Positions 5,246-41,632 of a stretch of 64,000 bases of DNA are shown in pieces. A model generated the notes under the pieces. The model ran no database searches, was not told where the DNA came from, and was given only the letters and a program-made list of their open reading frames with translations. This stretch comes from Deltaproteobacteria bacterium (GTDB taxonomy: Bacteria; Desulfobacterota; Binatia; HRBIN30; CADEER01). Position 1 is the first letter of the stretch. The number at the start of each line of letters is the position of its first letter. The DNA lies in NCBI GenBank assembly GCA_029262455.1, contig JAJCZJ010000088.1, positions 270,273 through 334,272 of the forward strand, given 5' to 3'. Both the position numbers and the translations under genes were made by a program.

Positions 5246-5359
5246 CACGGGAGCAATGGTAGCAGAGGGCGTGTCCGGCCTCCAATCGAAATAACGCCTC
5301 CGAGAAATCGTCGGGAACGAGAGTCTCCTGGGATCGAAGGCCCCGGAGGACACACAACG

Positions 5360-9933: not shown

Positions 9934-10806
9934 ATGTCGCGACTCTTCCAACGGACGGCCTATTCCGCCGGCAGGATTCGGAGAGCGGAAGTGATCCGCG
10001 GGCCGACGGGCTCATTGCCGCGTTCGCGATCTGCACCGGCATTGGCCGCAGTGCTGAGCACGCTCGGGCTCACTGCGGTGGTTTACGGGCAGGTCGTAGA
10101 GCCGGTCGTGATCGCACCGACATGGACAGAATACGTCGATGCCCTGGGAGTGTTGGAGGCTAGAAGCGCCGACGCCGACGCGGTCGCCACGGCGCTCTTT
10201 CGGGTGCAGAACGAAATCGGCCGGCGAAGGCCCAGTTCTAGGAACAGGCCGCCGTGCGACGACGAGGGGCTGGCGTCCCTGGCGCCTCGCGCCGAGGTCC
10301 TCGGTGTCGCGTTGCGAGACCGATTGCAAGCTGCACGGGCGCAGGCGCGTCGCGTCGATCGGCTCGCTGCGGCGCCCACGGTCGCACCGTTGGTGGACGG
10401 CCGAACCGGCCATCGACGGGCGGTCGTCACGGATCGCGTGACCTCTTCGACCGACATGTACCTGGAAGCCGTGGCCTGGCACGAAGGCCAGGTCGCCGAC
10501 TTCATTCGTCGTTGCAATCCGCCGCTTGCCCTCGCTGAGGGATTGGCCGTACCAGGGCCGTCGGGGCTCGATCCCAACCCAGACGGCGAACGGCCGCGGG
10601 TCGCGGTCATCGCACTACAAGGAGGTCGGATTTGCCCCGCCGGGGCGGTCACCTCGGGTGTCGCAATCACGGACGGACAGGCCTGTTACGGGGACGAGGA
10701 CTGCTCGTGCGAGCCCGCAGTCGTACTTCCAGCCGCCGTGCTCGGACCCTCCGAAGGCCAAGCACCCGAGCCCTCACCGATCGCCAGCGCCGGGTCGGCG
10801 AAGTAA
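9934..10806 (+). CDS. Hypothetical Ala-rich protein, possibly secreted
   Basis: 290-aa ORF with a possible signal segment (PALAAVLSTLGLTAVVYGQV). Its 3' end overlaps the convergent gene by ~120 nt, which lowers confidence. Confidence 0.35.
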   Translation: MSRLFQRTAYSAGRIRRAEVIRGPTGSLPRSRSAPALAAVLSTLGLTAVVYGQVVEPVVIAPTWTEYVDALGVLEARSADADAVATALFRVQNEIGRRRPSSRNRPPCDDEGLASLAPRAEVLGVALRDRLQAARAQARRVDRLAAAPTVAPLVDGRTGHRRAVVTDRVTSSTDMYLEAVAWHEGQVADFIRRCNPPLALAEGLAVPGPSGLDPNPDGERPRVAVIALQGGRICPAGAVTSGVAITDGQACYGDEDCSCEPAVVLPAAVLGPSEGQAPEPSPIASAGSAK

Positions 10807-27423: not shown

Positions 27424-28436
27424 CCTGGCTTAGACACCCAGAACTCCGTCGTCGCGTGGCGCGAAAGAAGCGACCCGACGGCCTCTGCGGCGGGAATCCC
27501 TTCGTGCAGAAACTGCCGCACCTGTTCACAGATCGGCAACTCAACGCCAAGTTTTTCGGCTAGGGCGATGACCGTCTGACTGTTCCGTACCCCTTCCGCG
27601 ACCATCTTCATATCGGCCAAGATAGCGTCCAGGGTTTCGCCGCGCCCGAGGCGAAGGCCGAGCGTCCGGTTGCGGCTCAGGTCACCAGTACATGTTAGGA
27701 TCAGGTCGCCAGCGCCGGCCAAACCGGCGGAAGTCTGCGGATCGCCGCCCGCTCGAGCAACCAGACGCGCCGTCTCAGCGATACCTCGGGTAATGACCGC
27801 AGCACGCGTACTGTGGCCGAAGCCCAAGCCGTCGCCGACTCCTGCGGCAATCGCGATCACATTTTTCGACGCGCCGCTGAGTTCAACCCCAACCACGTCC
27901 AAGCTACTGTAGACGCGAAAGTTCGGAGCCGAAAAAAGCTTCTGAATAGCCGCGGCAGCACTCGCATCGGGCGCCGCCACAGTCACCGCCGTCGGCATGC
28001 CAGCCGCAACTTCGCGCGCAAAGCTCGGGCCCGACAAGACTCCGACCCGTGGTCGATGGACCTCCCCGACTACGTCGACGAGCACATCGGTCATCATCTT
28101 GAGGGTGCCGGCTTCGATCCCCTTCGAAGCACTAACCACCAAAGACCCGGCCCTCAGCAGCGGCGCGACCGGCGAAAACACCTCGCGCATGACGTGCGAA
28201 GGGCAAGCGGCCACGACAGCATCGGCCTCGACCACCGCCTCGGCAAGGTCAGTCGTCGTCCGCAGACTTGACGGAAACGAAAAACCCGGAAGATAGATCT
28301 GATTCTCGCCGGCAGAAGCGGCAATTTTCTCAACCGCCGGGTCGTGAAACCACAAAACGACCTCGTGCCCGGCCACAGCCAGCAAGCGAGCCAACGCCGT
28401 CCCCCAGCTCCCTCCACCAATGACTCCAACGCGCAT
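27420..28436 (-). CDS. gpsA: NAD(P)H-dependent glycerol-3-phosphate dehydrogenase
   Basis: MRVGVIGGGSWGTALA Rossmann motif and GpsA C-terminal blocks. Start chosen at the ATG with an AGAGGA RBS. Convergent 4-nt overlap with ackA. Confidence 0.9.
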   Translation of the reverse strand: MRVGVIGGGSWGTALARLLAVAGHEVVLWFHDPAVEKIAASAGENQIYLPGFSFPSSLRTTTDLAEAVVEADAVVAACPSHVMREVFSPVAPLLRAGSLVVSASKGIEAGTLKMMTDVLVDVVGEVHRPRVGVLSGPSFAREVAAGMPTAVTVAAPDASAAAAIQKLFSAPNFRVYSSLDVVGVELSGASKNVIAIAAGVGDGLGFGHSTRAAVITRGIAETARLVARAGGDPQTSAGLAGAGDLILTCTGDLSRNRTLGLRLGRGETLDAILADMKMVAEGVRNSQTVIALAEKLGVELPICEQVRQFLHEGIPAAEAVGSLLSRHATTEFWVSKPG

Positions 28437-28704
28437 GTCGATCATTCCTCTGCGAGCTATTCTGCCAGGATACCGCCCCGAAAGGCAGAGAGCGACTGAC
28501 GAAGTCCCGCCCGTGCACCTGTCGAACGCAGCCAAATCCTGCCGGTTTCCAGATCGCAAGCTCTTTCGCAAGCCGGCCTACCCGACGGACCGGTCTCCTC
28601 CGAATGTTGTTTTCCCATTGATCTACAACAATCTAGCGGAGACAATTTCCTTGACCCAAGACGCCTGGGTTGAGAGGATTCACGCTTGGGAAGATGCCAT
28701 TTTT

Positions 28705-28738
28705 GGGCCCACGATCCACAACGGACGGGCCTTTTTGT
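28705..28738 (+). terminator. Terminator-like GC hairpin (GGGCCC...GGGCC) followed by TTTTTGT, 27 nt upstream of the large secreted-protein gene
   Basis: Seen directly in the sequence. A plus-strand hairpin plus U-tract lies in a divergent 330-bp intergenic region. Confidence 0.3.
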
Positions 28739-28764
28739 ACGAGTAAGCGATCGAGGGGGTAAGT

Positions 28765-31700
28765 ATGTCCAGTTCCGTACGCCTTGCAGGTGTCGCATCG
28801 GCGATGTTGCTGATTTTCAGCGCGTCGTACGCAGCAGCGATTCCGCTCACTTCTGACGAAGCAAAATGTCAGAAAACCGTTGCCACCCAAGGCCGCGTCT
28901 TCTTCAAGAAGCGCATCAAAGCCCTACAAAAGTGCAACGACGACATCATCAAGGGCAAGCTTGCCTCCGGCACGGATTGTACACTCGAATCCAAGGCAGC
29001 CAGCAAGATCACCAAGGCCGAGACTAAGTTCAGCGCCAAGGTCGGTGGCAAGTGCACCGATGCTTTGGTCGCAGCACTCGATTTTGGCGGCCAATGCGCC
29101 GGCGCGGCGACAACCGCCACGTTGACCTCGTGCCTTCGGCAAGACCATAGCAGTGCAGCCGACTCGCTGATCGCAACCGTCTACCCGACAACCGCGGTCA
29201 AGCAATGCGCCGGCGGAGCAAACGACGGTCTCGTGTGCACCGGGAACCCCGGATGCCCAGGCGGTACATGCGCCCTCCCGGGTCACGCATGTGACGGTGG
29301 AGACAACGACGGCACCGCTTGCGATATCGACGCAGACTGTACCGGCGGCGGCTCCTGTCTTCAGGGCAAGGACCACGCAAATTGCATCAAGACTGTCGGC
29401 AAGACAGTTGCCAAGCAAGCCAACAAGCGCATGGCCCTCGTACAGAAGTGCAAGAAGTCTGTCGGCAAAGGCAAGCTGCCGATCGGCACCGATTGCGTCG
29501 CCGAGTCGCAAGCGAAGCTCGACAAGCTGATGACCAAATCGATTCAGAAGATTCAGGACAAGTGTCCTACTTCGATCGCTTCGGGTCAGTTGTTCGGCGG
29601 CTCGTGTAAAGGTTCCGACACCACCGACAACGTCGCTTTCTGTGCCCTGTGCGAAACGAATAGCGGAGCCGACGACTTGATCGTCGTCCAGCACGGCTCC
29701 GGATCGAACGGCGGCGCAGCGGGTGCGATTCAGATCACCGACACCGCGGACTGTGTCGACGGCCCACAGAGTCGTTGCCGGATCGGCGACTACCTCCTAT
29801 CGAACGGCAACATTCGCGTCGTCGTACAGGACATCCAACGCCAGTACCTCGCGGGGATCGGCCAGTTTGGCGGTCAAATCATCGACGCCGACTTGGTTCG
29901 CACCGTAGGTGCCGACCGCGACAGTTTCGAAGAGTGGGCCGTTTCGCTCAACATCGAGTCCACCGCTCACTACACAAACCTCACGATTATCAACGATGGC
30001 ACCAACGGCGGTCCGGCGATCCTTCGCGCGACCGGCGTCGACGACCTTCTCGACCTGCTCAACCCGAGCGCAACCATTGCCAGCTTCGGACTTCTCTTGC
30101 CCCCTACGGCCGACGACTTTGATATCCCGGTAACGGTCCAAACGGATTACATCCTCGATCCGGGCTCGAATGCGGTCGAAGTCGAGACCACCGTTCTAAA
30201 CACCAGCGGCGCCTCTATCGACATCTTCTTCGGGGAGTTCATCAACGGCAGTGGCCAAGTCGAGCTCTTCCAATCCGGCTATGGCTTCGGCGAGCCACTG
30301 ATCGCGTCACCGTGCGGCGGCCGATCCAAATGCAACCAGCTCGCCAACATGATCGGTTACAGCGGAGAGCTGGAGTCTGCCGGAGTCTCCTACGCGTATG
30401 CTTCGGATACCCCCAACTCGTCATCGTTTTCGACCTCCGGAGTGTCCGTCGAACTCCTCGGTGTCGACGCGCTCGGTGCGCTGATTGGCGCCGCAACAGC
30501 CAACTTCACGCTCGAAGCAAACGGTACTACCGGCGATAGCCTCACCTTCTCCCGCCTATTCATCGTCGGGGACGGGACCATTTCCTCCCTGATTGACACC
30601 AGGATCGCGACTCAATGCCTGCCGTTCGGAACAGTCGACGGCACCGTGGATCTCGGAGGCAGCGTCATAGCCGACGCCGACGTGGTGGTTCTTGGTACCC
30701 CCGCCAACGGCCCCGGTGGCGGCCTGCACAACAATCTAACCCGCAACGTCGTGACACATACCCGCACCGACGCTGCGGGAGCCTTCTCACTGACACTGCC
30801 ACCGGGCAGCTACACCCTGGCAGCAAACTTTCAAGGCGCCCTGTACGAAGGTGCTGGAACATCGCCGACCGAGCACAGCATCACGGTGGTCGCGGCGACC
30901 ACCGTAACCCAGAACGTAAGCCTCCCGACGACGGGCGCGTTGCGCGTCATCGTGGACGACGAAAATACCGATCCGATCGCCGCCAGAATCGCCGTGGTCG
31001 GATTCGATCCGTCCCCGGATCCCAAGAACAATCAGAATCTTCTGGGACTGATCTTCAACACAACCGGCGTGTTTGGCGACCAAAACGAAGACGGCTTCCC
31101 GTTTGGCGTCGCACACAATCGCTACGCCGATGCGTCGGGCGACACCGGAGAGTTTCCAATGGAGCCGGGATCGTACCGCGTTTATGTCTCCCACGGCACC
31201 GAGTACTCCATCGACTTCGAAGACGTAACGATTACGGCCGGGGCCACGACGACGGTCAACGCTACGGTCGAACGGGTCATCGACTCCACCGGGTTCGTTT
31301 CCGGTGATTTCCACGTCCACTCGATCGATAGCCCAGACGCCGCTATCAGCCGCACCGATCGAGTCATCGCCATGCTCGGAGAAGGTGTCGATTTCTTTGC
31401 CACCACCGACCACGGCTACCGTGCCGACTTCTCTTCCGCCATCACCAGCCTCGGGGTTGGTGGACTGGTCTCCACCGCCATCGGACAGGAGATCACAACC
31501 TTTGACTACGGGCACTTCAACGCGTGGCCGCTCGACCTGAACACGTCGCTGGCCAACGGCGGTTTCGTGGACCACGGCGGCGCCGCTCCGGATGGATTGG
31601 ACTACCCGTCCGCCGGCTTCTACAGCGAAACGCCGGCAACCATCGTAGCGCTCGCCCACGCCGACTACACAGGCACCAACACCGTCCAGATCAACCACAT

Positions 31701-32781
31701 CCACAGTCACTTCGGTGTGGATGGTGGATCCGGGCTCGGCATCGACACCGGACTGACACCGCCAGCATCTGTCGTACCGGCTGCGGCCCGTCGGCTGAAT
31801 CCGGCCGTCACCAACTACTTCACCGACACCTTCGACGCTCTCGAAGTGTGGATCGGCGAAAGCTTAGGCCAAATCGACGATAACTTCCTCGGGCAGAACG
31901 CTGGTGACTGGATGAACATGATCAACCAGGGAATCATTTCGACGGGTGTCGCCAACTCGGACACGCACCGTCGCTTCATCACACAGTCGGGTTTTCCACG
32001 CAGCATGGTCGCCTCGCTCGAGGACGATCCCGGGCTGCTTTCGCAAGACGATGTCTCGTCGAGCGTCAACGCCGGGCGTGTGATTGGGACCAACGGGCCG
32101 CTGCCGCGGATTACGGTCCACTCTGCCGCAACCGGCGAAAGTGGTGGCCTCGATCTCGGACGCTGTACCGGAGTCGTGGCGTGCACCAACACGACGACAT
32201 GCCCGCCGTGCACGGACACCAGTCAATGCGCAATCGGCGAGACATGTACGACGCTTCCGACAACGATTACCTCCACTTCCGGGACCGATGTCGACATCAC
32301 CGTCGACGTGCAAAGTCCCGAATGGGCGCCGTTCGACAGGATCGAGTTCTACATCAACACCACAACTACCAAGACCACCACGATGGACGTCGAAACCGGG
32401 TCTGGAGAAGTTGATGTCAATCGCTATTCACTGACACCGGATCTCGTACACACCGCCGGAGTCGACTTCGCCGTCTCGACGGTCGCCGTGCCCGGTACGG
32501 GCTCCTCGCGACTCGTCGCAACGACCAGCACGACTCTGACTGGCCTGACCACCGACTCATGGGTAAGCGTCATGGTCGTCGGCACTGACGGTGTTTCCAA
32601 TCCGCTGTTTCCGGTCGTGCCAAACAGCCTCACGCAAGCCGGCAACACCACTCTGGCGAACCTGATCGACGGCAACCTTGGTGAGTCGGGTATGCCTGCG
32701 TTGGCGTTCACGAACCCGATCTTCATCGATACGGATGGCTCGGCCGGCTGGGACGCGCCGGGTGTACAGATTGCACCGTAG
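28765..32781 (+). CDS. Large secreted multidomain protein: duplicated Cys/Lys-rich N-terminal modules, a Cys-rich linker, a carboxypeptidase-regulatory-like domain and a PHP-type metallophosphoesterase domain
   Basis: Signal peptide MSSSVRLAGVASAMLLIFSASYAAA. Two ~75-aa modules with an identical Cys spacing (CQKTV...KC...GTDC...KC...GGQC and CIKTV...KC...GTDC...KC...GGSC). TDAAGAFSLTLPPGSYTL (CarboxypepD_reg-like). DFHVHSIDSPDAAISRTDRVIAMLGEGVDFFATTDHGY (PHP domain HxH...D...TDH). Confidence 0.8.
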   Translation: MSSSVRLAGVASAMLLIFSASYAAAIPLTSDEAKCQKTVATQGRVFFKKRIKALQKCNDDIIKGKLASGTDCTLESKAASKITKAETKFSAKVGGKCTDALVAALDFGGQCAGAATTATLTSCLRQDHSSAADSLIATVYPTTAVKQCAGGANDGLVCTGNPGCPGGTCALPGHACDGGDNDGTACDIDADCTGGGSCLQGKDHANCIKTVGKTVAKQANKRMALVQKCKKSVGKGKLPIGTDCVAESQAKLDKLMTKSIQKIQDKCPTSIASGQLFGGSCKGSDTTDNVAFCALCETNSGADDLIVVQHGSGSNGGAAGAIQITDTADCVDGPQSRCRIGDYLLSNGNIRVVVQDIQRQYLAGIGQFGGQIIDADLVRTVGADRDSFEEWAVSLNIESTAHYTNLTIINDGTNGGPAILRATGVDDLLDLLNPSATIASFGLLLPPTADDFDIPVTVQTDYILDPGSNAVEVETTVLNTSGASIDIFFGEFINGSGQVELFQSGYGFGEPLIASPCGGRSKCNQLANMIGYSGELESAGVSYAYASDTPNSSSFSTSGVSVELLGVDALGALIGAATANFTLEANGTTGDSLTFSRLFIVGDGTISSLIDTRIATQCLPFGTVDGTVDLGGSVIADADVVVLGTPANGPGGGLHNNLTRNVVTHTRTDAAGAFSLTLPPGSYTLAANFQGALYEGAGTSPTEHSITVVAATTVTQNVSLPTTGALRVIVDDENTDPIAARIAVVGFDPSPDPKNNQNLLGLIFNTTGVFGDQNEDGFPFGVAHNRYADASGDTGEFPMEPGSYRVYVSHGTEYSIDFEDVTITAGATTTVNATVERVIDSTGFVSGDFHVHSIDSPDAAISRTDRVIAMLGEGVDFFATTDHGYRADFSSAITSLGVGGLVSTAIGQEITTFDYGHFNAWPLDLNTSLANGGFVDHGGAAPDGLDYPSAGFYSETPATIVALAHADYTGTNTVQINHIHSHFGVDGGSGLGIDTGLTPPASVVPAAARRLNPAVTNYFTDTFDALEVWIGESLGQIDDNFLGQNAGDWMNMINQGIISTGVANSDTHRRFITQSGFPRSMVASLEDDPGLLSQDDVSSSVNAGRVIGTNGPLPRITVHSAATGESGGLDLGRCTGVVACTNTTTCPPCTDTSQCAIGETCTTLPTTITSTSGTDVDITVDVQSPEWAPFDRIEFYINTTTTKTTTMDVETGSGEVDVNRYSLTPDLVHTAGVDFAVSTVAVPGTGSSRLVATTSTTLTGLTTDSWVSVMVVGTDGVSNPLFPVVPNSLTQAGNTTLANLIDGNLGESGMPALAFTNPIFIDTDGSAGWDAPGVQIAP

Positions 32782-34093
32782 CAAAACGTATCTCGCGACT
32801 ACCCCGCGGAACCTGGACGTAACCAGGTTCCGCGGGGCCACCTCCGCCCTGCGGGCTGCCACGAATCTGCTGCTCGCTCTGGTACTGTTGGCGCCAGCTT
32901 CAGCTTACGGCGCCTTTGCACCAAAGACCCGTGAGATGCTGCGCAAGGCTACGTTCGTCGGCGGCGGCGAGATCCTTGCGACGTCCGAGTACGACGACGG
33001 TCGCATTGGCGTAGTCCATATTCGCATCGACGAAATGTTCAAACCGGGCAAGACCAAAGGTCCCCACAGTGTGCGCGTCGTTTCGATCACCGATGAACCG
33101 GGCGCGGTTCAACCCGAAGTCGGCGCCAAAGGGCTGCTCTTTGTCCAGCCTCTGCGACGCACCTCCTACATCGATCGACACGTGCCGGACAGCACCAGCA
33201 CCTACTCTTTCGTCGATGGACGCGATGGCTGGCGCCAAGCACGAGCCAACCAGATGGAAAAGTTGGCCGCCCCTATCCGACAGCTGGTCGCGAACAGCCG
33301 CGGAAAACAGAAAGATCCATCGGCTCAGACCGCCCAGCGCACGATTACGTTTCAGCTCATCTCTTCGCTCGACCCAATCCTGGTGCCTGACGGACTCGTC
33401 GTGCTTGCGGAACTCCCGGATCTCGCTAATTCCCTTAGTGAAGCAGAGGTCGACAGCCTCAAGGCCGCCCTCCACTCCGACACGCTGCCGACGAAAGTCC
33501 GCAAGACCGTCATCAGCGCGATCGCCGACAATCGACTCACCGTGCTTGCCGACAGCTTGCGCAAGATCGACGACACAGAGCTTCAACGTGACGCCTGGGG
33601 CGCGTTGCGCCGACTCGGGCATCCGATAAACGTCGACACTTTGCACGAAGATCTAAAAAGCGAAAAGCCGGGAGTTCGCACCGCGGCTGCTTTGGAACTT
33701 CTCGACCGGGATCCCGAAAAGGAGATCGCGACCGTGTCGAAACAGCTCCTGAAGGATCCCGATCCCGAGGTCAGGCTCGAGGTAATCGAAGCACTAGGCG
33801 CAACCGGCTCGGCACAGGCGGCTACGGTGCTCGAACCGGTCTTCTCCGACTCCGACCTGAAGCAGCGCCAAGCAACGGCGCGGGCCCTACTTGCGATCGG
33901 CGGACCCACCGCCGCAGACTCGTTTCACCGCCTTGCCTTCGAGGGTTCAATTCAAGCCCAACGGTTTGCAGTATTCGGACTGTTCTCGCTCGGCGTCGGG
34001 CGCGAGGATGGCCGCCTGCAGGACATCGCAAGACGCCACACCGACAAGAAAATCAAGGAACTGATCGAACATGGCATCGAGCACGGCCACTGA
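32735..34093 (+). CDS. Secreted HEAT-repeat (PBS-lyase-like) protein
   Basis: Signal peptide LLLALVLLAPASAYG and C-terminal HEAT-like repeats (VRTAAALELL..DPEVRLEVIEALGATG..LKQRQATARALLAIG). The first ATG (32735) overlaps the upstream gene by 47 nt; in-frame GTG 32762 or TTG 32771 are alternatives. Confidence 0.6.
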   Translation: MARPAGTRRVYRLHRSKTYLATTPRNLDVTRFRGATSALRAATNLLLALVLLAPASAYGAFAPKTREMLRKATFVGGGEILATSEYDDGRIGVVHIRIDEMFKPGKTKGPHSVRVVSITDEPGAVQPEVGAKGLLFVQPLRRTSYIDRHVPDSTSTYSFVDGRDGWRQARANQMEKLAAPIRQLVANSRGKQKDPSAQTAQRTITFQLISSLDPILVPDGLVVLAELPDLANSLSEAEVDSLKAALHSDTLPTKVRKTVISAIADNRLTVLADSLRKIDDTELQRDAWGALRRLGHPINVDTLHEDLKSEKPGVRTAAALELLDRDPEKEIATVSKQLLKDPDPEVRLEVIEALGATGSAQAATVLEPVFSDSDLKQRQATARALLAIGGPTAADSFHRLAFEGSIQAQRFAVFGLFSLGVGREDGRLQDIARRHTDKKIKELIEHGIEHGH

Positions 34094-34142
34094 CACTCCG
34101 CGGAAATTTCGAACTCCCAGACCATTCTCCCCAACCGCATTA

Positions 34143-34541
34143 ATGATTGCGTTGACTGCAGCAGCGATCTTTGCGGCAGCGACAACCTCGGCTCATACCA
34201 AGCCACGCGCCGCGAAAGAGCTGGTGCGAATTCACGGAACCATCGCCGCCGGCGGAACTTGCGAAAAGGCGACCCTGGTGAAGCTGGCAGTGTTGGGGCG
34301 AGCCCTGCAGATCTGCGCCAGTGATCTGAGGCGCATCGTGGTTGCAACAGAGGAAGGGGCCGACGAACCAGCTCCAACCGAGCTGGATTTGCAGGGAGAG
34401 AGGTCCTCCCTGGCTCGCTTGCGCAAAGCACAGCCACCACAGACGGTATCGATCCTCGGTGAATGGCGGCCCGGCCGACGGGACCTGTTCCTGATCTCGC
34501 TCGATCTTTGTGATTGCGGAGATCCGCCTCCAGACAATTGA
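34143..34541 (+). CDS. Hypothetical small secreted protein
   Basis: MIALTAAAIFAAATTSAHT is a signal peptide. ~130 aa with a C-terminal CDCG. Immediately precedes the LRAT-family gene. Confidence 0.35.
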   Translation: MIALTAAAIFAAATTSAHTKPRAAKELVRIHGTIAAGGTCEKATLVKLAVLGRALQICASDLRRIVVATEEGADEPAPTELDLQGERSSLARLRKAQPPQTVSILGEWRPGRRDLFLISLDLCDCGDPPPDN

Positions 34542-34553
34542 GGCTTTTCTCGT

Positions 34554-35105
34554 TTGGGTCACCGCTCGGTTCACGGTATGATCGCTGCCATGGCAGCAGG
34601 GGACCACATCCGCGTTCTACGGCGACGGCTATACTGGCACCACGGAATCGACCTCGGCGATGGCTCAGTGATCCACGCCAGCGGCGAGCCCGGTCGTAGA
34701 AATATCGATGCCGAAGTACGACACTCTTCGATTGAGGAGTTCGCGCGCGGTGGCGAGATCGAGATCGTCGATGATGGAGGCCTGCTCTCCGGTGACGAAG
34801 TGGTCGCCCGCGCAAGGCAGGCGCTCGGGACCAAGGACTACAGTCTGCTTTCCAACAACTGCGAGCACTTCGCACGCTGGTGCCGTACTGGTCGCGGCAA
34901 CAGCGAGCAGATCGACGCCTTTGCGATCGCCGGAACAGTTCTCGGGTTGGCAGCACGACTCGCCATCGCTGGGATCGCCCGAAAGGGCGGAACTTCGTTG
35001 GCGATCCGCGCACTCCCGTTGGCGGGGCCGCTGGCGACCGGACTGGCTGTCGCCGCCGCAGCCGTCGCAGTGGGCACTCGCGTCCTACGCGCTGAAGAGA
35101 ACTGA
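34554..35105 (+). CDS. LRAT/PLAAT-family protein (NlpC/P60 superfamily papain-like acyltransferase/phospholipase) with a C-terminal hydrophobic anchor
   Basis: GDHIRVLRRRLYWHHGIDLGDGSVIHASGEP (the catalytic His region) and LLSNNCEHFARWCRTG (the catalytic NCEHF Cys motif). An Ala/Gly-rich hydrophobic tail follows. The start may be the ATG at 34578. Confidence 0.7.
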   Translation: MGHRSVHGMIAAMAAGDHIRVLRRRLYWHHGIDLGDGSVIHASGEPGRRNIDAEVRHSSIEEFARGGEIEIVDDGGLLSGDEVVARARQALGTKDYSLLSNNCEHFARWCRTGRGNSEQIDAFAIAGTVLGLAARLAIAGIARKGGTSLAIRALPLAGPLATGLAVAAAAVAVGTRVLRAEEN

Positions 35106-35124
35106 GATCCAGGGGACGCGTCGG

Positions 35125-35496
35125 ATGGGAGCACGTATCTTGTTGGGCGTGTCAGCCGCCGTATGGCTCCCCTATGGCCTGCTCTGCCTCGCGTTACCCG
35201 ACACCCTCCAAACCGCTGCCGGCGTCGCATTCTTCAGCCCGACCGGGCGTACCGAGATCCGCGCGATGTACGGTGGCTTGCAAATTGCGATCGGCGTTCT
35301 CTGTTGCATCGGTCTGGTGCGGGCGAGTTGGCAGCAGACCGCGCTACGAACCCTGTTGGTCCTTGCAAGTGGGTTGATCGGAGCCCGCCTCCTCGGCGGA
35401 TTCATTGACGCCTCGTTCTCGGCCTACACGGTATTCGCCGCGCTCTTCGAAGCGATCACGGTCGGATTCTCAGCCTGGCTGCTGCGCGAACCATAG
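35125..35496 (+). CDS. DUF4345-like small integral membrane protein
   Basis: MGARILLGVSAAVWLPYGLLCLALPDTL... has four predicted TM segments. An AGGGGA RBS lies 20 nt after the LRAT gene stop. Confidence 0.6.
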   Translation: MGARILLGVSAAVWLPYGLLCLALPDTLQTAAGVAFFSPTGRTEIRAMYGGLQIAIGVLCCIGLVRASWQQTALRTLLVLASGLIGARLLGGFIDASFSAYTVFAALFEAITVGFSAWLLREP

Positions 35497-35530
35497 TCGG
35501 AGTCGCGTTGGTTGGGCGTTCTTATGATGA

Positions 35531-36382
35531 CTAGGCTACCTCAGCCGTCACCATCCAGGTAGACGCACTCATCCGCAATCCGTTGTCGCCTTGGAACGGC
35601 TGCAGTGCCTCCGCGATGGACGCTGCTACGCGTTCCTTGACGTCGTCCGAAGCCTCCTGCAGCAACCGGCCGGTCGGCCCCATCTGCATCACCACCCGGA
35701 CAGTCTCTTCGAGCGAACGCCCCGCGCCGATCGCGACTTTCGTGTCGAAGCGATCAATCGCAACCGCCCCAAAGTCCGCCTCTTCCAAAATTCGGCGCAA
35801 ACGATCCCCATCGGCAAACGCAAACGGTCCTGGGGCACCAGGGGCAGGGATCTCCGGCGGCGGCAAGTGTTGCAACGCTGCCGCAACCGGGACCGTCATC
35901 CACTCGTTGTCTTCGACCCCGCGCCAACACGCGAAGGACAGCCTCGCTCCAGATCGTGCAGCGCGACCCAGGTTCGCAAACGCCGCTTTCGGGTCCGAGA
36001 AAAACATCACACCGAAGCGCGAGAAGATCGCATCGAACGCCGTCTCGAACGCGCGACTCTGAGCATCGGCTTCGAGGAAGGTAAGACCGGCCGCTAACTC
36101 AGCCGACGCGGCACTAGCTCGCGCGCGAGCTAACATGGGTGCCGATAGATCGATCCCAACAACTGTCCCGCCCGCGCCGACCCGGCGTGCCAGCTCGAGC
36201 GAAGTCGCCCCACAACCGCAGCCGACATCCAGGACACTCGACCCCTCAATCGCGCCGAGCCGACTCATCGCCTCAAGACCCAGGGGCTCGAGCTGCGCGT
36301 CGATGAAGGCTTGTAACTCGACCCACTTTGGGCCCGCTTGTTCACTCCAGTAGAGCGCCTGCTCGGAATTCTGATCGGTCAT
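35531..36382 (-). CDS. Class I SAM-dependent methyltransferase
   Basis: The SAM-binding motif [17 protein letters not shown] and motif II/III spacing. Confidence 0.8.
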
Positions 36383-36783
36383 TCATCCATGTCGTCGCTG
36401 TGACGCAGCGACACCGAATTCATGCAGTACCGCTGCCCCGAAGGACCCGGACCATCGGGAAAGACGTGCCCCAAATGGGCATCGCACCGAGCACAAAGAA
36501 CCTCGACTCGGCGCATCCCGTGACTCTCGTCTGCTTCCGTGCGGACAGCCCCTTCTGTCAGTGGATTCCAAAAGCTCGGCCATCCGGTGCCGGAGTCGAA
36601 CTTGGTCTCCGACGAGAACAATTCATGACCACAGCATCGGCAGTGGAAGACCCCAACGCCCTTGTAGTCGTTGTACTTACCGGTGAAGGCAGGCTCAGTC
36701 CCTTTTTGGCGACAGACCGAATATTCCTCTGCCGAAAGCTCTTGCCGCCATTCCTCGTCGCTCTTCTCAAGCTTCTCAGTCAT
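36379..36783 (-). CDS. msrB: Peptide-methionine (R)-S-oxide reductase
   Basis: Two CxxC pairs ([21 protein letters not shown]) and GTGWPSF form the MsrB signature. 4-nt overlap with the methyltransferase gene. Confidence 0.9.
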
Positions 36784-36898
36784 CCCGAGTGCTCCCTCTC
36801 AAGTGAAGTCCACAGGATACGGTGGCTGCGACAGACGGTCCAGCGCGGAACGCCAAGTTTTGCTTTGGTCAGCGCGGAACCACCGCTACGAAACGAAG

Positions 36899-38368
36899 CT
36901 AGGGACAGCTCGTAAACACTGGAGCATCGAATTCAGCGTCGCTGATCTCAATGGTGCCGCCAGCGTCGATTGCGATACAACCGAGACCGTCTGTTTGGAA
37001 ATCGCCGTCCGCGGTCAAGCTTCCATTCCGCGACTTGGCAACGATCGTGCCGCCACCACGAACACGAAAGTCGCTGCGCATCAGAAGGTCACCCTCGGTT
37101 TCGATCCGGATCGTACCGCTACCGTCCTCGCCGTCGGCGCGAACATCGACGCGAGACTCGAACACAGCGTCATCGGCATTGACAGCGATGGAACCTCCAC
37201 TCATACCTTGCGCCAACAAACTGGTCCGGCGATCGACCCTCAACGATCCAACGTCGATTGTGATCTCACCGCCATCGGTCCGGCCACCGGTCGAGATCGA
37301 AGCGTCGACAATGGTATCACCAGCACTAATCGCCACGCCCCCGCCACTCCCAACTTTCCCAGTCGCCACGATGCGTCCCCGCGCTTCCAATGATCCGCCG
37401 CCCAATGCGACGTGACCGCCCTCAGCGCCGTCGACAAAAATCGTGTCGCGAACGAACAGCGAGTCCTGACCAAAAAGCCAGACTGTGCCACCTTGCGCGT
37501 CCCGCAATCCACTTCGCGCACGGATCAAATCTAAGCTCAGAGTATCCTGCCCGGAGAGCGCAACGAAACCACCGACCGTAGCACCGTTGGCATCGATCCG
37601 CCGATCCGTACGGAGTACGCGCGCCGCACTAAGTAAGACGACGCCGCCGCGTTTACTTCTTCCGCTCGCGTCGAGCTTCTGCATGATCACCACATCGCCC
37701 GCCGAGCTATCGATACGAATGCTGCCGCCCTCGCCTCCGCGAGCGTCGACAACTCCGCTGAGGCGGACTCCCTCATCGCCCGATATCGTAACCAGGCCGC
37801 CCCTGCGGTTCACTCCAGAACGCGCTTGAATTCTCGCTCGCCCGACGGTCGACACTAATCCAGTCGCATGAATGTCGATCGTACCGCCGTCAAAGATTGT
37901 ACCTGTCCCGGTCGCCGACGCACGCAGCGGCGCGCGGATTTCAATATTGTCTCCGGCATCGAGGAGTATCGATCCAGCGCCCTTCTGACCCGAAACATCC
38001 AGACGCCAGCGAATGTTAATGTCGTCTGTCGCGCGAAGCTCGATCGTGCCTCCAAGAGAAGTGGCGGCTTGCGCCGGGCGCGCGACAATTGCGCGTCGGA
38101 CATCGAACGAACGCGCGGAGAAGGCAATTTTTCCGCCGTCTTCAGTTCGCAAAGTGCCGGCTACGACAACGTGACGATCGCCGAAGTCAACTTCACACGG
38201 GTCCGCCAGAGTTGCGCTGCGAATCTCGCACGGATCTCCAACACAGAGCTTGTCCGGACTGTCACAAATCAGCGCCGACACCGACCGACCACCGAGGCCG
38301 ATCAGCCCGACAGCTAGCAAAACCGTCAGTCCGCCAATGCGTCTCCTAGCGTTTTCAGCTTCCATCAT
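36899..38368 (-). CDS. Secreted Gly-rich parallel beta-helix repeat protein
   Basis: Signal peptide, then repeated G-x-I/V-x-I/L-x-A/S-x-x motifs (GGTIDIHATG, GGSIRIDSSAGD, GGEITIDVGS, GSGTIRIETEGD). Confidence 0.6.
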   Translation of the reverse strand: MMEAENARRRIGGLTVLLAVGLIGLGGRSVSALICDSPDKLCVGDPCEIRSATLADPCEVDFGDRHVVVAGTLRTEDGGKIAFSARSFDVRRAIVARPAQAATSLGGTIELRATDDINIRWRLDVSGQKGAGSILLDAGDNIEIRAPLRASATGTGTIFDGGTIDIHATGLVSTVGRARIQARSGVNRRGGLVTISGDEGVRLSGVVDARGGEGGSIRIDSSAGDVVIMQKLDASGRSKRGGVVLLSAARVLRTDRRIDANGATVGGFVALSGQDTLSLDLIRARSGLRDAQGGTVWLFGQDSLFVRDTIFVDGAEGGHVALGGGSLEARGRIVATGKVGSGGGVAISAGDTIVDASISTGGRTDGGEITIDVGSLRVDRRTSLLAQGMSGGSIAVNADDAVFESRVDVRADGEDGSGTIRIETEGDLLMRSDFRVRGGGTIVAKSRNGSLTADGDFQTDGLGCIAIDAGGTIEISDAEFDAPVFTSCP

Positions 38369-38491
38369 CTCCCCCGTGAAGCAAAGCCCTCAAACTACGG
38401 GCGAATCCTCGCTCACTCGGACTACAGATGTCAAGCAACCAATCCCCAGGAACCAATCCGCCAAGCCCCTGCAATCCAACAACTTTGGTGT

Positions 38492-39265
38492 TTAAGGAGG
38501 TGCGGACTGGCGAGGGAACTTGCGGACCTGCCGGTAGCGCCGCAGCAAAGCTGCGAACCCGTTTGGAAGACTCGCGGCGTACCCGATAAACCCGGGTAGA
38601 GTGGCAAAACATTCTTCAGCAGCCACGTAAGCCGGATCATCCCGCAACGCGCTCTGCGCCCGACGCGGCGGCTCCGCGCCCGGATCGACTCGAAAGTCTC
38701 GGACATAAGCGAGGAGGCGCCGGTGGTAGTCCGGATCCTCGACGATCGCGCCAATGGTCCCCTGGCGGGGATGCCGCCCTTCGACCATCGCCAGCACCTG
38801 GTCCTCTAGAGCACCGACTCCATTTGGAAACATCTGCAATATTTGAAGGTCGTAGACCGGGTTTAAGTGGACCACTTGCATTAGGTGACCAATGATCGTG
38901 TCGCGATCAGAGTAGAATCCGGTCGGATCTATCATCGAAACCGGGTCATCAAGGATCCGCAAGAGTTGATGGAAGCCGAAATTGATACCCTTCGATTCAT
39001 AGTACTCGCGTGCCGCCGGTTCGATGACGAAACGGAGCATGTCGAAACCGCCGAAAAGTAGCTGGCGACGACTGGGGCGCTGCTCGACGACGTTCTGGGC
39101 AACCAGCGAGTCGAGCCGCCGCGGCACTTCGCGGGGATCCAAGTAGATTCGGACAGTGCGCGCCAGTCGGCGCACCTTGCCCGCCAGCTGCCGAGGCCCC
39201 CCGATCGCTGCCAGCAACAAGCGCAACGGCCCGGCACTCGTCCTCGTCAAGCGCTCTTCGCCCAT
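38492..39265 (-). CDS. Hypothetical protein (family not recognised)
   Basis: Long ORF with protein-like composition. Start set at an internal ATG to avoid overlap with the divergent DCC gene. Confidence 0.4.
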   Translation of the reverse strand: MGEERLTRTSAGPLRLLLAAIGGPRQLAGKVRRLARTVRIYLDPREVPRRLDSLVAQNVVEQRPSRRQLLFGGFDMLRFVIEPAAREYYESKGINFGFHQLLRILDDPVSMIDPTGFYSDRDTIIGHLMQVVHLNPVYDLQILQMFPNGVGALEDQVLAMVEGRHPRQGTIGAIVEDPDYHRRLLAYVRDFRVDPGAEPPRRAQSALRDDPAYVAAEECFATLPGFIGYAASLPNGFAALLRRYRQVRKFPRQSAPP

Positions 39266-39365
39266 CAAGGCCTCAGCATGCCGCAACCTCGACCGGCGTT
39301 TCAATCCTGACAACCCAGTCCATGACCTTTGCGGCCTACCTGCGGCGTGTATGATGGAGGTACCG

Positions 39366-39836
39366 ATGGAATCAACGGCACGCGAAATCCCAGCCGGTAG
39401 CGTCATCGTATTCTACGATGGAGTCTGCGGTTTTTGTAACCGAACCACTCAGTTCGTCGGCAGGCACGATACCGAGAATCACTTTCGCTTCGCTCCGCTC
39501 CAAGGAGGTCTCGCTGCCGAGCTCCTCCTCGCTCACGATGTAGACCCATCCGGCCTCGACACAGTGTATGTTCTCACCTCTTACGGTCTACCCGACGAGA
39601 CGGTCTACACACGAGCACACGGGATCCTCCGCATCCTCACGGAACTCGGCGGTCTCTGGCGGTTGTTCGCGATTTTTTCCTTTATACCAAAGGCTATTCT
39701 CGACCCGTTCTACCTCGCTTTCGCCAAGCGTCGCTATGACTTCTTCGGCCGGTACGATGAATGCCCTATCCCAGATCCGTCACTGCGGGCTAAGTTCGTC
39801 GACGTCGGCAACGGAAACAACGAATCCGAAGCGTAA
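39366..39836 (+). CDS. DCC1-like thiol-disulfide oxidoreductase family protein (DUF393)
   Basis: VIVFYDGVCGFCNRTTQFV is the DCC-family signature. GGAGG lies 6 nt upstream of the ATG. Confidence 0.75.
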   Translation: MESTAREIPAGSVIVFYDGVCGFCNRTTQFVGRHDTENHFRFAPLQGGLAAELLLAHDVDPSGLDTVYVLTSYGLPDETVYTRAHGILRILTELGGLWRLFAIFSFIPKAILDPFYLAFAKRRYDFFGRYDECPIPDPSLRAKFVDVGNGNNESEA

Positions 39837-39887
39837 CAATCGCCGCGCAGGAAAGTACTAGTGAAGGAACCAACAGGAGATCACTCA

Positions 39888-40868
39888 ATGGCAGTCCTGA
39901 TTCGCTCGAAGACTCCCGCAGATCTGTCCGAGCGCGACGTAACCAACGAGAAACACTACTGGCACCGCCGAGATTTTATCAAGATCGCCGGCGCAAGCGC
40001 CGCACTCGTCGGAAGTGGGTTGATCGGTTGCGAAAACGGCGGGGAGTCCGCCCAGGCGAGCGCTGAACCTCCGGCCGCCGTAACCGGCTTGACGAAATCA
40101 CCGCTGAGTACGGCTGAGGATCAGACCGACTACGCCGACGCAACGAGCTACAACAACTTCTACGAGTTCGGCACCGACAAGTCCGATCCGGCACGATACG
40201 CCCACTCGCTCGTCACCGACCCTTGGACAATTGAAATCGGCGGCGCGGTCAATAAACCCGGAAAGATCGCCCTCGAGGACCTCCTGGCGCAACACTCCCT
40301 CGAGGAACGGATCTACAGACTCCGGTGCGTCGAAGCATGGTCGATGGTCATTCCGTGGATCGGCATACCGCTGGCGTCGGTTCTCCCGCGATTTGAACCG
40401 ACCGGAAACGCGAAGTACGTCGCCTTCAAAACCCTTCACGACCCGAAACAAATGCCCGGCCAAAATCGACGCGCCCTGCAATGGCCGTACCGCGAGGGAC
40501 TTCGTATGGACGAAGCGATGCACCCTCTCACGATCCTCGCCACGGGGATGTACGGACGTGAAATGCCGAATCAGAATGGAGCCCCGCTGCGGCTGGTCGT
40601 CCCTTGGAAATACGGGTTCAAGAGTATCAAATCGATCGTCAGCATCGATTTGGTCGCGAACCAGCCTGACACCTCCTGGAACATGCAAGCCGCGCGCGAG
40701 TACGGATTCTACTCCAACGTCAACCCAGAGGTGGATCACCCGCGCTGGAGCCAGGCCAAGGAAAGACGGATCGGCGAATTCCGACGCCGTAAGACGCTGC
40801 CGTTCAACGGCTATGGGGAACAGGTCGCTTCCCTGTACAGCGGAATGGACCTCAAGAAGCACTTCTGA
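39888..40868 (+). CDS. msrP: Protein-methionine-sulfoxide reductase catalytic subunit (molybdopterin, YedY)
   Basis: Tat-like N-terminus [35 protein letters not shown] and [22 protein letters not shown]. Confidence 0.9.
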
Positions 40869-41059
40869 CTCAGATTCGTCAAAAGGCTTGCCTCCAACCA
40901 CCGCGCGGAGTTAAAGCAGAATTCGCACTCGGCATGTAACTGTCGATATCGACGGGCTCGGCCAGGTAACCGGGGGGTCCACGGGTTCTACCCTCCGCGA
41001 CACCTGCGCCGCGCCCGTCGAAGCCGGATCTCGTGACAGTCGCACTGCGAACTTGGCCC

Positions 41060-41632
41060 ATGATCGACAAACGTTCTCAACAGCTGGCCGCAGCTGCACT
41101 TGGCCTTCTCCCCGCCACCTTTCTGCTATTCCGATTTCTCACCGACTCGCTGGGCGCCAATCCGATTGAGGAGATCACACACGAGACAGGAGAGTGGGCG
41201 CTACGGCTTCTACTCCTGAGTCTCTCCATCACTCCGCTGCGCCGGATCACCGGACGCAACTCTCTGGTGCCTTTTCGCCGAACCTTCGGCCTCTTGTCTT
41301 TTTTCTACGCACTTCTGCATTTTTCGACGTGGCTCGGTCTCGATCACTTCTTCGACTGGCAAGGGATCATCGAAGACATCTTCGAGCGGCCCTACATCAC
41401 CGCCGGCTTCACCGCATTCGCGAGTCTCACTCCACTCGCCATTACCTCGACCCGGGGCTGGATTCGCAGGCTCGGCAAAAAGTGGACTCACCTGCACCGG
41501 TTGGCCTACTTCGCGGCCATCGCGGCAGTGGTTCATTTCTGGTGGCTGGTGAAGTCAGACGTCACCGAGCCGCGCTACTACGCGGCAGCGCTGGGAGTGC
41601 TCTTGGCAGCACGCCTGGTCCCGCGCCGTTAG
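41060..41632 (+). CDS. msrQ: Protein-methionine-sulfoxide reductase heme-binding subunit (YedZ)
   Basis: Ferric-reductase-like TM protein (ALRLLLLSLSITPLRR, HRLAYFAAIAAVVHFWW), paired with msrP. Confidence 0.85.
   Translation: MIDKRSQQLAAAALGLLPATFLLFRFLTDSLGANPIEEITHETGEWALRLLLLSLSITPLRRITGRNSLVPFRRTFGLLSFFYALLHFSTWLGLDHFFDWQGIIEDIFERPYITAGFTAFASLTPLAITSTRGWIRRLGKKWTHLHRLAYFAAIAAVVHFWWLVKSDVTEPRYYAAALGVLLAARLVPRR

Follow-up and report, generated by a model that had tools for sequence, protein, structure and literature searches.

An LRAT/PLAAT-family gene packed between a gene for a small secreted protein and a gene for a membrane protein, as found in the 64,000-nucleotide stretch of Binatia DNA analysed here (the window), raises two questions: whether the gene truly belongs to this family of acyl-enzymes, and whether it forms with its neighbours a unit dedicated to membrane lipids. 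In animals, PLAAT and LRAT proteins have roles in vitamin A storage, N-acyl-PE synthesis, organelle degradation and picornavirus entry. The features of the locus to which we refer are the following.

28765..32781, plus strand: 1338-aa Cys-rich secreted protein with a CarboxypepD_reg domain
32678..34093, plus strand: HEAT-repeat protein (PF13646 HEAT_2, E = 5.7e-16; gene callers place its start at about 32762)
34071..34541, plus strand: lineage-restricted small protein, 156 aa (132 aa if read from the ATG at 34143)
34554..35105, plus strand: LRAT/PLAAT-family protein (PF04970), maximal ORF of 183 aa from the TTG at 34554
34638..34640, plus strand: codon of His29, read from the sequence and aligned with the catalytic His23 of PLAAT3
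34674..34676, plus strand: codon of His41, aligned with His35 of PLAAT3, the third residue of the triad
34860..34862, plus strand: codon of Cys103 in the NCEHF motif, aligned with the catalytic Cys of PLAATs; predicted acyl-thioester nucleophile
34905..35099, plus strand: paired long Ala/Gly-rich hydrophobic helices, a predicted membrane anchor (Kyte-Doolittle (KD) windows and AlphaFold (AF2) model)
35127..35496, plus strand: DUF4345 (PF14248) four-helix membrane protein of 123 aa, a facultative neighbour
35531-36382, minus strand: SAM-methyltransferase, convergent to the LRAT run and part of the syntenic block described below
36379-36783, minus strand: MsrB, likewise convergent and part of the block

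Family, fold and catalytic residues

We found that the gene at 34554..35105 encodes a true bacterial LRAT/PLAAT protein, one of the circularly permuted papain-like enzymes, with its triad intact, and this assignment is robust. The HMM search that the initial annotation had called for gave a match to PF04970 spanning profile positions 3-118 of 120, with E = 1.9e-25 and 89.9 bits, well above the gathering score of 24.3, and the same family was present in all 120 of 120 homologues. At E <= 0.01 it was the sole Pfam family, with no match to PF00877 or PF05708, and NCBIfam, PADLOC and PHROGs gave no usable match. The best PDB sequence match of the protein was PLAAT2, and the family profile retrieved from the PDB solely chains of PLAAT2/3/4 and of the HRASLS3/LRAT chimera (E from 9e-20 to 2e-15), with no YiiX or BcPPNE chain among its matches at E <= 0.01. 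The AF2 model (pLDDT 83.4) aligned in Foldseek with PLAAT4, PLAAT2 and PLAAT3 at E values of 1e-6 to 1e-5, with target TM scores of 0.70-0.81 and rmsd of 2.5-3.8 Å, whereas canonical NlpC/P60 chains were matched only at E >= 0.29 across some 60 columns. The earlier placement of the protein in the LRAT/PLAAT branch, rather than among generic NlpC/P60 endopeptidases, is thus borne out. Its true start is probably the ATG at 34590, giving 171 aa, since nearly all of the best 150 homologues begin at query residue 13.

The H...NCEHF pair on which that placement had been founded also held when aligned at the level of residues, with His29, His41 and Cys103 falling on the catalytic positions of PLAAT2/3 (PDB 4dpz, 4dot, 4fa0). 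Among 262 homologues, His29 is a histidine in 258 and His41 in 247 (Gln, Glu or Asp in the remainder), and N102, C103 and E104 are invariant. Both histidines lie N-terminal to Cys103, which is the permuted order, and the corresponding CHH triad of LRAT has been described (PMC10318531). A second cysteine, C110, is near-invariant as well (256/262) and may point to a chemistry other than that of PLAATs.

Could the LRAT-like motifs reflect mere superfamily membership, in a non-lipid hydrolase that cleaves the cell wall as an endopeptidase or amidase, in the manner of canonical NlpC/P60 enzymes, or that acts on proteins as a deacylase or peptidase? This can be considered since the bacterial NlpC/P60 superfamily is dominated by peptidoglycan hydrolases, and since permuted members of the YiiX type have been proposed to be lipid-peptide amidases (PMC3142127). 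We regard it as highly improbable in view of the Pfam and Foldseek results above and of the order of the residues, His before Cys. Moreover, no N-terminal signal peptide or export signal was seen on the LRAT protein, so its catalytic domain cannot reach the cell wall. On the HMM result, the permuted order and the missing signal peptide we rejected a peptidoglycan endopeptidase (PF00877), and on the lack of a PF05708 match a YaeF/YiiX-like permuted amidase (C92).

Predicted membrane anchor and proposed reaction

Two hydrophobic stretches close the LRAT protein (residues 119-143 and 153-175, KD values of 1.8-1.9), and the AF2 model gives this tail as two long helices, 118-144 and 147-182, with pLDDT of 72-82. 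At least one hydrophobic segment follows the catalytic domain in 78% of the 262 homologues. The hydrophobic C-terminal region reported in the initial annotation is therefore present, but as two helices and not as a single tail anchor. The protein is predicted to be anchored in the membrane through these helices, which are rich in Ala and Gly, carry conserved Arg residues and so may be interfacial rather than membrane-spanning. The soluble domain would stay on the cytoplasmic side because there is no signal peptide, and thus the catalytic domain probably faces the cytoplasm.

The closest known proteins are the human PLAAT2, PLAAT3 and PLAAT4 (HRASLS2/3, H-rev107, TIG3; PDB 4dpz, 4dot, 7zom, 7zot), with which the window protein has in common PF04970, the permuted papain-like fold, the His-His-Cys triad with its Cys in NCEHF, and a hydrophobic C-terminal anchor after the catalytic domain. 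It differs from them in being only 27-28% identical, in having two long Ala/Gly-rich helices with conserved Arg residues where PLAATs have a single tail-anchor helix, and in the near-invariant Cys of the bacterial 'RWC' motif, which is Leu in PLAAT2. In a bacterial host, the substrates available in the membrane are presumably PE and PG instead of PC. Vertebrate LRAT, known in structure as a chimera (4q95), shares the family and the thioester-forming Cys/His chemistry and is matched by the profile at E = 1.1e-15, but the HRASLS3/LRAT chimera aligns poorly in structure with the window protein (rmsd of about 13 Å). A further Foldseek match was the Euglena gracilis complex I subunit NDUEG7 (PDB 8iuf chain E7), with 168 columns and a query TM of 0.53; no PLAAT chain covers as much of the query, so the match probably takes in both the LRAT-like domain and the C-terminal helices. 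NDUEG7 is, however, a structural accessory subunit of a eukaryotic respiratory complex, is 15% identical (sequence E of 0.49) and is not among the matches of the family profile at E <= 0.01.

Lipid specificity is established for several permuted NlpC/P60 enzymes, namely PLAATs, LRAT, Tox-Act1 and TseH (PMC12994826, PMC3142127, PMC10318531). The T6SS toxins Tox-Act1 and TseH, YiiX/YaeF (C92), DUF4105 and LnsA of S. aureus resemble the window protein in the permuted His...Cys order and in lipid-directed activity, and some bacterial enzymes of this kind have a membrane partner or an immunity protein (PMC12994826, PMC7387801, PMC3142127). In a published tree, however, these proteins form clades apart from LRAT (PMC12994826). 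Several are described as working outside the cytoplasm, with Tox-Act1 secreted by the T6SS and acting in the periplasm and a signal peptide predicted for LnsA (PMC12994826, PMC7387801), whereas the window protein matches PF04970 only, lacks an export signal and stands outside any conflict-system context.

We therefore favour, with moderate confidence, a reading of the LRAT protein as an autonomous, membrane-anchored, probably cytoplasm-facing thiol acyl-enzyme that would act on phospholipid acyl esters. The analysis shows its family, its fold, its conserved triad, its hydrophobic tail and how its neighbours are distributed; its membrane topology, lipid substrate and reaction outcome are what we infer, the steps of the reaction by homology with PLAAT2/3 and LRAT. 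The soluble domain of some 115 residues would lie on the cytoplasmic side, with the two C-terminal helices holding the protein at the inner membrane. His29, oriented by His41, would deprotonate Cys103, which would then attack a membrane glycerophospholipid at its sn-1 or sn-2 acyl ester, leaving an acyl-thioester enzyme. From there the acyl group could go to water, making the enzyme a phospholipase A1/2, or be moved onto the oxygen or nitrogen of a lipid acceptor, the amine of PE being one example. The literature searched yielded classification papers but no biochemical characterisation of a bacterial PF04970 member, so that the substrate and reaction proposed here are carried over from proteins of about 27% identity.

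Neighbours of the LRAT gene

The three plus-strand ORFs for the signal-peptide orphan, the LRAT protein and the DUF4345 protein are tightly packed between 34071 and 35496, with intergenic gaps of 12-21 nt, in keeping with the co-orientation and tight spacing first noted, and they are real genes rather than chance ORFs because each has orthologues in other genomes. The 5' end of the small-protein gene overlaps the 3' end of the HEAT gene by 23 nt, and the gene for the 1338-aa secreted protein is probably the first of the co-directional run; orthologues of 1338-1339 aa hold the same position in loci L002 and L097. With gaps this small, co-transcription of the LRAT gene with its co-directional neighbours in the window is plausible and even probable. 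A scan of positions 28000-37000 showed no promoter-like sites, and its 6 terminator-like sites, fewer than the 8.4 expected from shuffled sequence, are uninformative on operon boundaries.

The DUF4345 protein is as it had been described, a four-TM neighbour downstream, with four hydrophobic segments and a PF14248 match over positions 2-119 of 119 (E = 3e-12, 47 bits against a gathering score of 26.5). All 89 of its 89 homologues carry PF14248, and NCBIfam, PADLOC and PHROGs gave no usable match. It adjoins the LRAT gene in 6 of the 9 Binatia-like loci (window, L002, L003, L004, L006, L084), overlapping it by 4 bp in L003, and is missing from L007, L008 and L097, three loci that do not form a single clade on a simple NJ tree built without bootstraps. 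The three closest DUF4345 homologues found outside the Binatia-like block (51-57% identity) lie in unrelated contexts with no LRAT neighbour; one of them adjoins a YhhN-family gene, and another an FlK-like thioesterase gene.

The upstream neighbour also agrees with its first description, as a secreted protein of about 130 aa, in having an N-terminal signal-like segment, with a single hydrophobic segment at residues 17-43 (KD 1.83) followed by a conserved AHTKPR. Its gene probably starts at the ATG at 34071, 72 nt before the 34143 given earlier, because AAGGAA lies 10 nt upstream and this start supplies a positively charged n-region. Besides the signal-like segment, it shows a conserved HTKPR at the mature N-terminus, GEWRPGRRDLFL, and CxC at the C-terminus. 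No match was found in Pfam, NCBIfam or PHROGs, the PADLOC value (E = 0.081) was noise only, and a homology search among 5.8 billion proteins returned just 3 matches. With an alignment of 3 sequences its AF2 models are unreliable (71.5 for the best, 40-54 for the other four), and Foldseek on this unreliable model gave non-significant OB-fold-like matches only (E >= 0.06). The gene occurs in 7 of the 9 Binatia-like loci, only where the HEAT gene occurs and never without it. HEAT orthologues lie 5' of it in L002, L004, L007, L008, L084 and L097. In L003 there is no small-protein gene beside the LRAT gene, only a partial match some 6 kb off on the other strand; in all other loci it abuts or overlaps the HEAT gene. 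The small protein thus goes with the HEAT gene and not with the LRAT gene.

These observations bear on the small membrane-lipid-remodelling operon which the initial annotation had suggested, that is, a dedicated three-gene unit with DUF4345 as the membrane partner that presents the substrate or handles the acceptor, in the manner of LnsA/LnsB. The co-orientation and short gaps, the LRAT-DUF4345 adjacency in six loci, the YhhN-family and thioesterase neighbours of DUF4345 homologues, and the precedent of LnsAB N-acylation, in which a permuted NlpC/P60-like enzyme needs a separate polytopic membrane protein (PMC7387801), all argue for it. However, the adjacency is limited to a single lineage in which a whole block is syntenic, genes on the opposite strand included: a large secreted protein, HEAT, the small protein, LRAT, DUF4345 (in some genomes), and the convergent methyltransferase and MsrB, these last two being kept beside the LRAT gene in every Binatia-like locus long enough to show them. 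Both LRAT neighbours are restricted to these 9 loci, and neither was found, HMMs included, in 75 other, non-Binatia LRAT loci; LRAT orthologues of 56%, 50% and 43% identity are monocistronic, with genes of the opposite strand on either side. To this are added the absence of DUF4345 from three loci that do not group together on the simple tree, the link of the small protein to the HEAT gene, and the export of the small protein as against an LRAT domain with no export signal. The neighbours whose conservation the proposal counted on are thus largely not conserved across genomes, and a three-gene operon of this kind seems unlikely to us. The LRAT gene is an autonomous unit, and its Binatia-like neighbours are lineage-specific and not obligatory partners, with the 4-bp overlap in L003 and the adjacency in six of nine loci leaving room for a lineage-specific functional link.

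A role in conflict was likewise considered, with the LRAT protein as a membrane-lytic phospholipase toxin of interbacterial competition or abortive infection, and DUF4345 as its immunity or regulatory factor. Permuted NlpC/P60 domains do act as phospholipase toxins with membrane immunity proteins, as in Tox-Act1 and TseH (PMC12994826), and a gene for a small membrane protein lies directly 3' of LRAT in some loci. Many LRAT orthologues, however, have no adjacent small gene, the LRAT protein lacks any domain for trafficking or secretion, and the neighbourhoods examined contained no genes of the T6SS/T5SS, Rhs or PAAR kinds. None of the three proteins matched PADLOC or PHROGs, the wider surroundings in the window are housekeeping (gpsA, msrB and msrPQ-like genes), and in picocyanobacteria the LRAT gene is fixed in a housekeeping position. 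We consider such an effector very unlikely, and a toxin-immunity pair or anti-phage defence effector was rejected on the database results and the housekeeping neighbourhoods.

Spread of the bacterial clade

The autonomous acyl-enzyme that we favour belongs to a clade far larger than the Binatia-like loci. We found 5,425 clusters of the bacterial LRAT type at 50% identity, 1,873 of them at E <= 1e-10. Its genome loci number no fewer than 345, with hosts in Binatia, Hydrogenedentota, Nitrospiraceae, Acidimicrobiia, Myxococcota-like lineages, Planctomycetota and picocyanobacteria, so that the statement that this branch is sparse in bacteria does not stand. The Binatia gene, which normally works alone and not in the proposed unit of three, is one member of a large, phylogenetically broad and uncharacterised bacterial clade, and the window locus itself adds little beyond one further member and a lineage-specific neighbourhood.

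More speculatively, and in our judgement with a low probability, the clade bearing 'NNCEHFARWC' could consist of widespread, uncharacterised membrane-anchored thiol acyltransferases. Their product may be an acylated lipid peculiar to bacteria, such as N-acyl-PE or acyl-PG, or they may work from the cytoplasmic face to remodel acyl chains; Cys110 might then have a part in acyl relay, and DUF4345 might have been recruited as a membrane partner in the Binatia-like lineage.

The question to follow up shifts to the role of this conserved clade, for example in Synechococcus or Cyanobium, where the position of the gene is fixed. When the raw ORFs around LRAT in 80 loci were clustered all against all, spurious ORFs of high GC made the result noisy, and the one clear synteny in it was that of picocyanobacterial clpX and dnaX; about 20 picocyanobacterial loci have the order clpX-LRAT-dnaX, within the fixed arrangement tig-clpP-clpX-LRAT-dnaX.

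The locus and its LRAT-family protein

Three successive ORFs occupy 34071-35496 on the + strand of the window, separated by 12 nt (small protein/LRAT) and 21 nt (LRAT/DUF4345).

ORFs of the locus
34071-34541, +, small protein, 156 aa (132 aa from ATG 34143, the start proposed in the initial annotation)
34554-35105, +, LRAT protein, 183 aa, PF04970 match
35127-35496, +, DUF4345 protein, 123 aa, PF14248 match

This confirms the layout described in the initial annotation, with small corrections needed to two start codons. For the LRAT gene, ATG 34590 (MAAGDHIRV...) is the probable start, since in almost all alignments with the 150 top homologues query residue 13 is the first to be matched. The small-protein gene overlaps the 3' end of the upstream HEAT-repeat gene, and the gaps are so tiny that the LRAT gene is probably co-transcribed with its neighbours in the window; a promoter and terminator scan gave no information bearing on this.

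The middle ORF had been assigned to the LRAT/PLAAT family, and sequence, profile, fold and conserved residues all agree with that call. The protein matches Pfam PF04970 (LRAT) over nearly the whole profile (E = 1.9e-25, 89.9 bits, gathering score 24.3), and its best solved relative by sequence alone is human PLAAT2 (4dpz, E = 1e-5). Its YWHHG and VIHAS motifs align to His23 and His35 of PLAAT3, and NNCEHF to the catalytic Cys. A profile made from 35 homologues retrieved PLAAT2/3/4 and an HRASLS3/LRAT chimera from the PDB (E 9e-20 to 2e-15), and no further chains at E <= 0.01. In Foldseek, the AlphaFold2 model (pLDDT 83.4) matched PLAAT4/2/3 with E 1e-6 to 1e-5, target TM 0.70-0.81 and rmsd 2.5-3.8 A, while the canonical NlpC/P60 endopeptidases SagA, MepS and Spr reached only E >= 0.29 over ~60 columns. 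Among 262 homologues N102, C103 and E104 are invariant, H29 is kept in 258, and H41 in 247, with Q, E or D in the others. The best matches are therefore to this family and not to a generic endopeptidase, and membership, judged from sequence and model, is as secure as a computational case can be. The domain call is correct, and the window protein is an ordinary member of a known family. A peptidoglycan hydrolase was also considered; the family match and the fold rule it out, as do the order of the catalytic residues and the absent export signal.

The model also aligned with the Euglena gracilis complex I accessory subunit NDUEG7 (8iuf chain E7) over 168 columns (query TM 0.53, 15% identity), a larger share of the query than is covered by any PLAAT chain, which hints at an LRAT-like membrane-anchored subunit inside a respiratory complex.

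Hydrophobic tail, second cysteine and proposed mechanism

Whereas PLAATs have a single tail anchor, the tail of the window protein is modelled as a pair of long, Ala- and Gly-rich helices (118-144 and 147-182) that carry conserved Arg residues. One or more hydrophobic segments follow the catalytic domain in about 78% of homologues. Other forms have ~140 aa with one segment, or ~280 aa with several Gly-rich segments; the latter (P0065, P0076, P0081, P0097, P0113) have long tails that repeat the hydrophobic motif GLSGxGIMSGLATxGG. The same clade contains cyanobacterial fusions to PspA/IM30 (PF04012) and a single fusion to DUF1232 (PF06803); P0117, P0119 and P0052 also belong to these variants. 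A second cysteine, C110 (codon 34881-34883; the RWC of NNCEHFARWC), is kept in 256 of the 262 bacterial-type homologues and corresponds to Leu in human PLAAT2; the role of this cysteine could be structural, acyl relay or redox-related. No signal peptide was found in the LRAT protein, so the catalytic domain would be expected on the cytoplasmic face of the membrane.

Family membership, fold, triad, hydrophobic tail and the autonomy of the gene are shown by the comparisons made here, and topology, substrate and product are inferred. By homology with PLAAT2/3 and LRAT, His29, oriented by His41, would activate Cys103, which would attack an acyl ester at sn-1 or sn-2 of a membrane phospholipid, giving an acyl-thioester. 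Either water (PLA1/2 activity) or a lipid acceptor (O- or N-acyl transfer) could then resolve this intermediate, and the C-terminal helices would hold the enzyme at the bilayer.

Neighbouring genes and their conservation

Every ORF of 83 LRAT loci was searched by phmmer and, in a second round, by HMMs made from the Binatia orthologues. Matches to the small protein, DUF4345, HEAT, methyltransferase and MsrB genes came from the closest loci alone, which are Binatia-like.

Genes at the LRAT loci of nine distinct genomes, from this search, further locus look-ups and a tblastn check
Locus; HEAT; small protein; LRAT; DUF4345
Window (L001); yes; yes; yes; yes
L004; yes; yes; yes; yes
L084; yes; yes; yes; yes
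L002; yes; yes; yes; yes, split over two reading frames
L006; not visible (LRAT at contig start); not visible; yes; yes
L003; no; no; yes; yes
L007; yes; yes; yes; no
L008; yes; yes; yes; no
L097; yes; yes; yes; no

In L007, L008 and L097 the convergent methyltransferase comes straight after LRAT, and these three loci, which lack DUF4345, do not form a single clade in a simple, unbootstrapped NJ tree built from LRAT proteins. The small protein was seen only where HEAT occurs, abutting or overlapping it (by 4 bp in L002). L003 instead carries DUF6502 and DUF5666-like genes upstream of LRAT, with a partial small-protein match ~6 kb off on the opposite strand. Orthologues of LRAT with 56%, 50% and 43% identity stand singly between opposite-strand genes for amidohydrolase/MacB, branched-chain amino-acid ABC transport and polysaccharide ABC transport. 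In ~20 picocyanobacterial loci (within L056-L082; Synechococcus, Cyanobium, Vulcanococcus, Prochlorococcus; LRAT match at ~5001-5360 of each locus) the order tig-clpP-clpX-LRAT-dnaX is conserved, with dnaX immediately downstream and often ~10 nt off, which suggests that the homologue is a core rather than accessory gene there.

Since these neighbours were found only in Binatia-like loci, and the orthologues at 43-56% identity stand alone, the neighbours are largely not conserved, and the small lipid-remodelling operon initially suggested does not survive cross-genome comparison: the adjacency is block synteny inside one lineage, each neighbour is dispensable and the LRAT gene is autonomous. 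A dedicated three-gene system, or an LRAT-DUF4345 pair, is improbable; it keeps some probability because LRAT and DUF4345 overlap by 4 bp in L003 and adjoin in six of the nine loci, and because LnsA/LnsB, in which a permuted NlpC/P60-like enzyme requires a polytopic partner, offers a precedent (PMC7387801). A role for the LRAT protein in toxin-immunity or defence is unlikely, given that PADLOC and PHROGs give no matches, the protein has no trafficking domain, its surroundings are housekeeping genes and many orthologues have no adjoining small gene.

The small protein matches nothing in Pfam, NCBIfam or PHROGs and has only three hits among 5.8 billion proteins; it is a lineage-restricted orphan. 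A single N-terminal hydrophobic segment precedes a conserved AHTKPR, of which the invariant His is likely the first residue of the exported, mature protein (A|HTKPR). Invariant in the three sequences are the mature N-terminus HTKPR, the motif GEWRPGRRDLFL and a C-terminal CxC, and four further orthologues translated from the loci show minor substitutions only. The protein also has two internal Cys. The N-terminal His and Cys motifs hint that it may bind metal. Its AF2 model is weak and vaguely OB-like, and a structure search from it gave no significant match.

The DUF4345 protein, with four hydrophobic segments, matches PF14248 over its full length (47 bits, cut-off 26.5). The three homologues examined from other contexts (51-57% identity) lie in unrelated surroundings: DUF456-DUF4345-YhhN, MFS-DUF4345-beta-lactamase and unknown-DUF4345-FlK. 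In L085 (3502-5013) and L089 (624-1429) the gene overlaps or abuts YhhN (lysoplasmalogenase-like family) or an FlK-type hotdog thioesterase, a lipid/acyl-related annotation seen in few cases only. The split orthologue of L002 (6584-6931, on a 4.77-Mb Binatia contig) has scrambled ends and is either a genuine pseudogene or an indel error of the 13x long-read assembly.

In the window, the co-directional run starts with a Cys-rich secreted protein of 1338 aa (28765-32781; CarboxypepD_reg domain, N-terminal Cys-rich repeats), followed by the HEAT_2 protein; gpsA lies upstream and divergent. Same-length orthologues head the run in L002 and L097, and an HVHS...DH stretch of the protein looks like a putative metal-dependent phosphoesterase (PHP-like) motif. 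Downstream of DUF4345, 35531-41632 is a methionine-sulfoxide/redox repair-like neighbourhood: a convergent SAM methyltransferase and MsrB, then two unannotated proteins, a DCC1-like thiol-disulfide oxidoreductase, a molybdopterin oxidoreductase (MsrP-like) and a ferric-reductase-like membrane protein (MsrQ-like), a set conserved in L002, L003, L084 and L097. At 10001-14000, G+C rises to 0.70 and 0.675 against ~0.60 elsewhere; a TPR-like ORF of 548 aa (- strand) lies here, as does a class A penicillin-binding protein (12319-14643; transglycosylase and transpeptidase).

Breadth of the bacterial clade

The branch had been called sparse in bacteria, which the census contradicts. Exhaustive phmmer over 1.84 billion representatives at 50% identity found 5,425 proteins when the threshold was E <= 1e-3, falling to 1,873 for E <= 1e-10 and to 10 for E <= 1e-30, and the strict motif NCEHFA[RHE]W by itself gave at least 345 confirmed loci among 185,579 species (one genome each). 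These cover Binatia, Hydrogenedentota, Nitrospiraceae, Acidimicrobiia and other Actinomycetota, Myxococcota-like lineages, Planctomycetota and numerous picocyanobacteria; the loci closest to the window are named Candidatus Binatia, and a 623-kb NCBI contig encodes LRAT and DUF4345 proteins identical to those of the window. The clade is uncommon per genome, yet numerous and phylogenetically broad. In the literature searched, no bacterial member of PF04970 is described as characterised, and reviews treat animal and viral members only (PMC10318531, PMC3142127, PMC12994826). One animal entry, the 152-aa 'PLAAT3-like' P0118 of Actinia tenebrosa, carries the bacterial-type NNCEHFARWC at 37% identity to the window protein, which could reflect horizontal transfer or a contaminated animal assembly.
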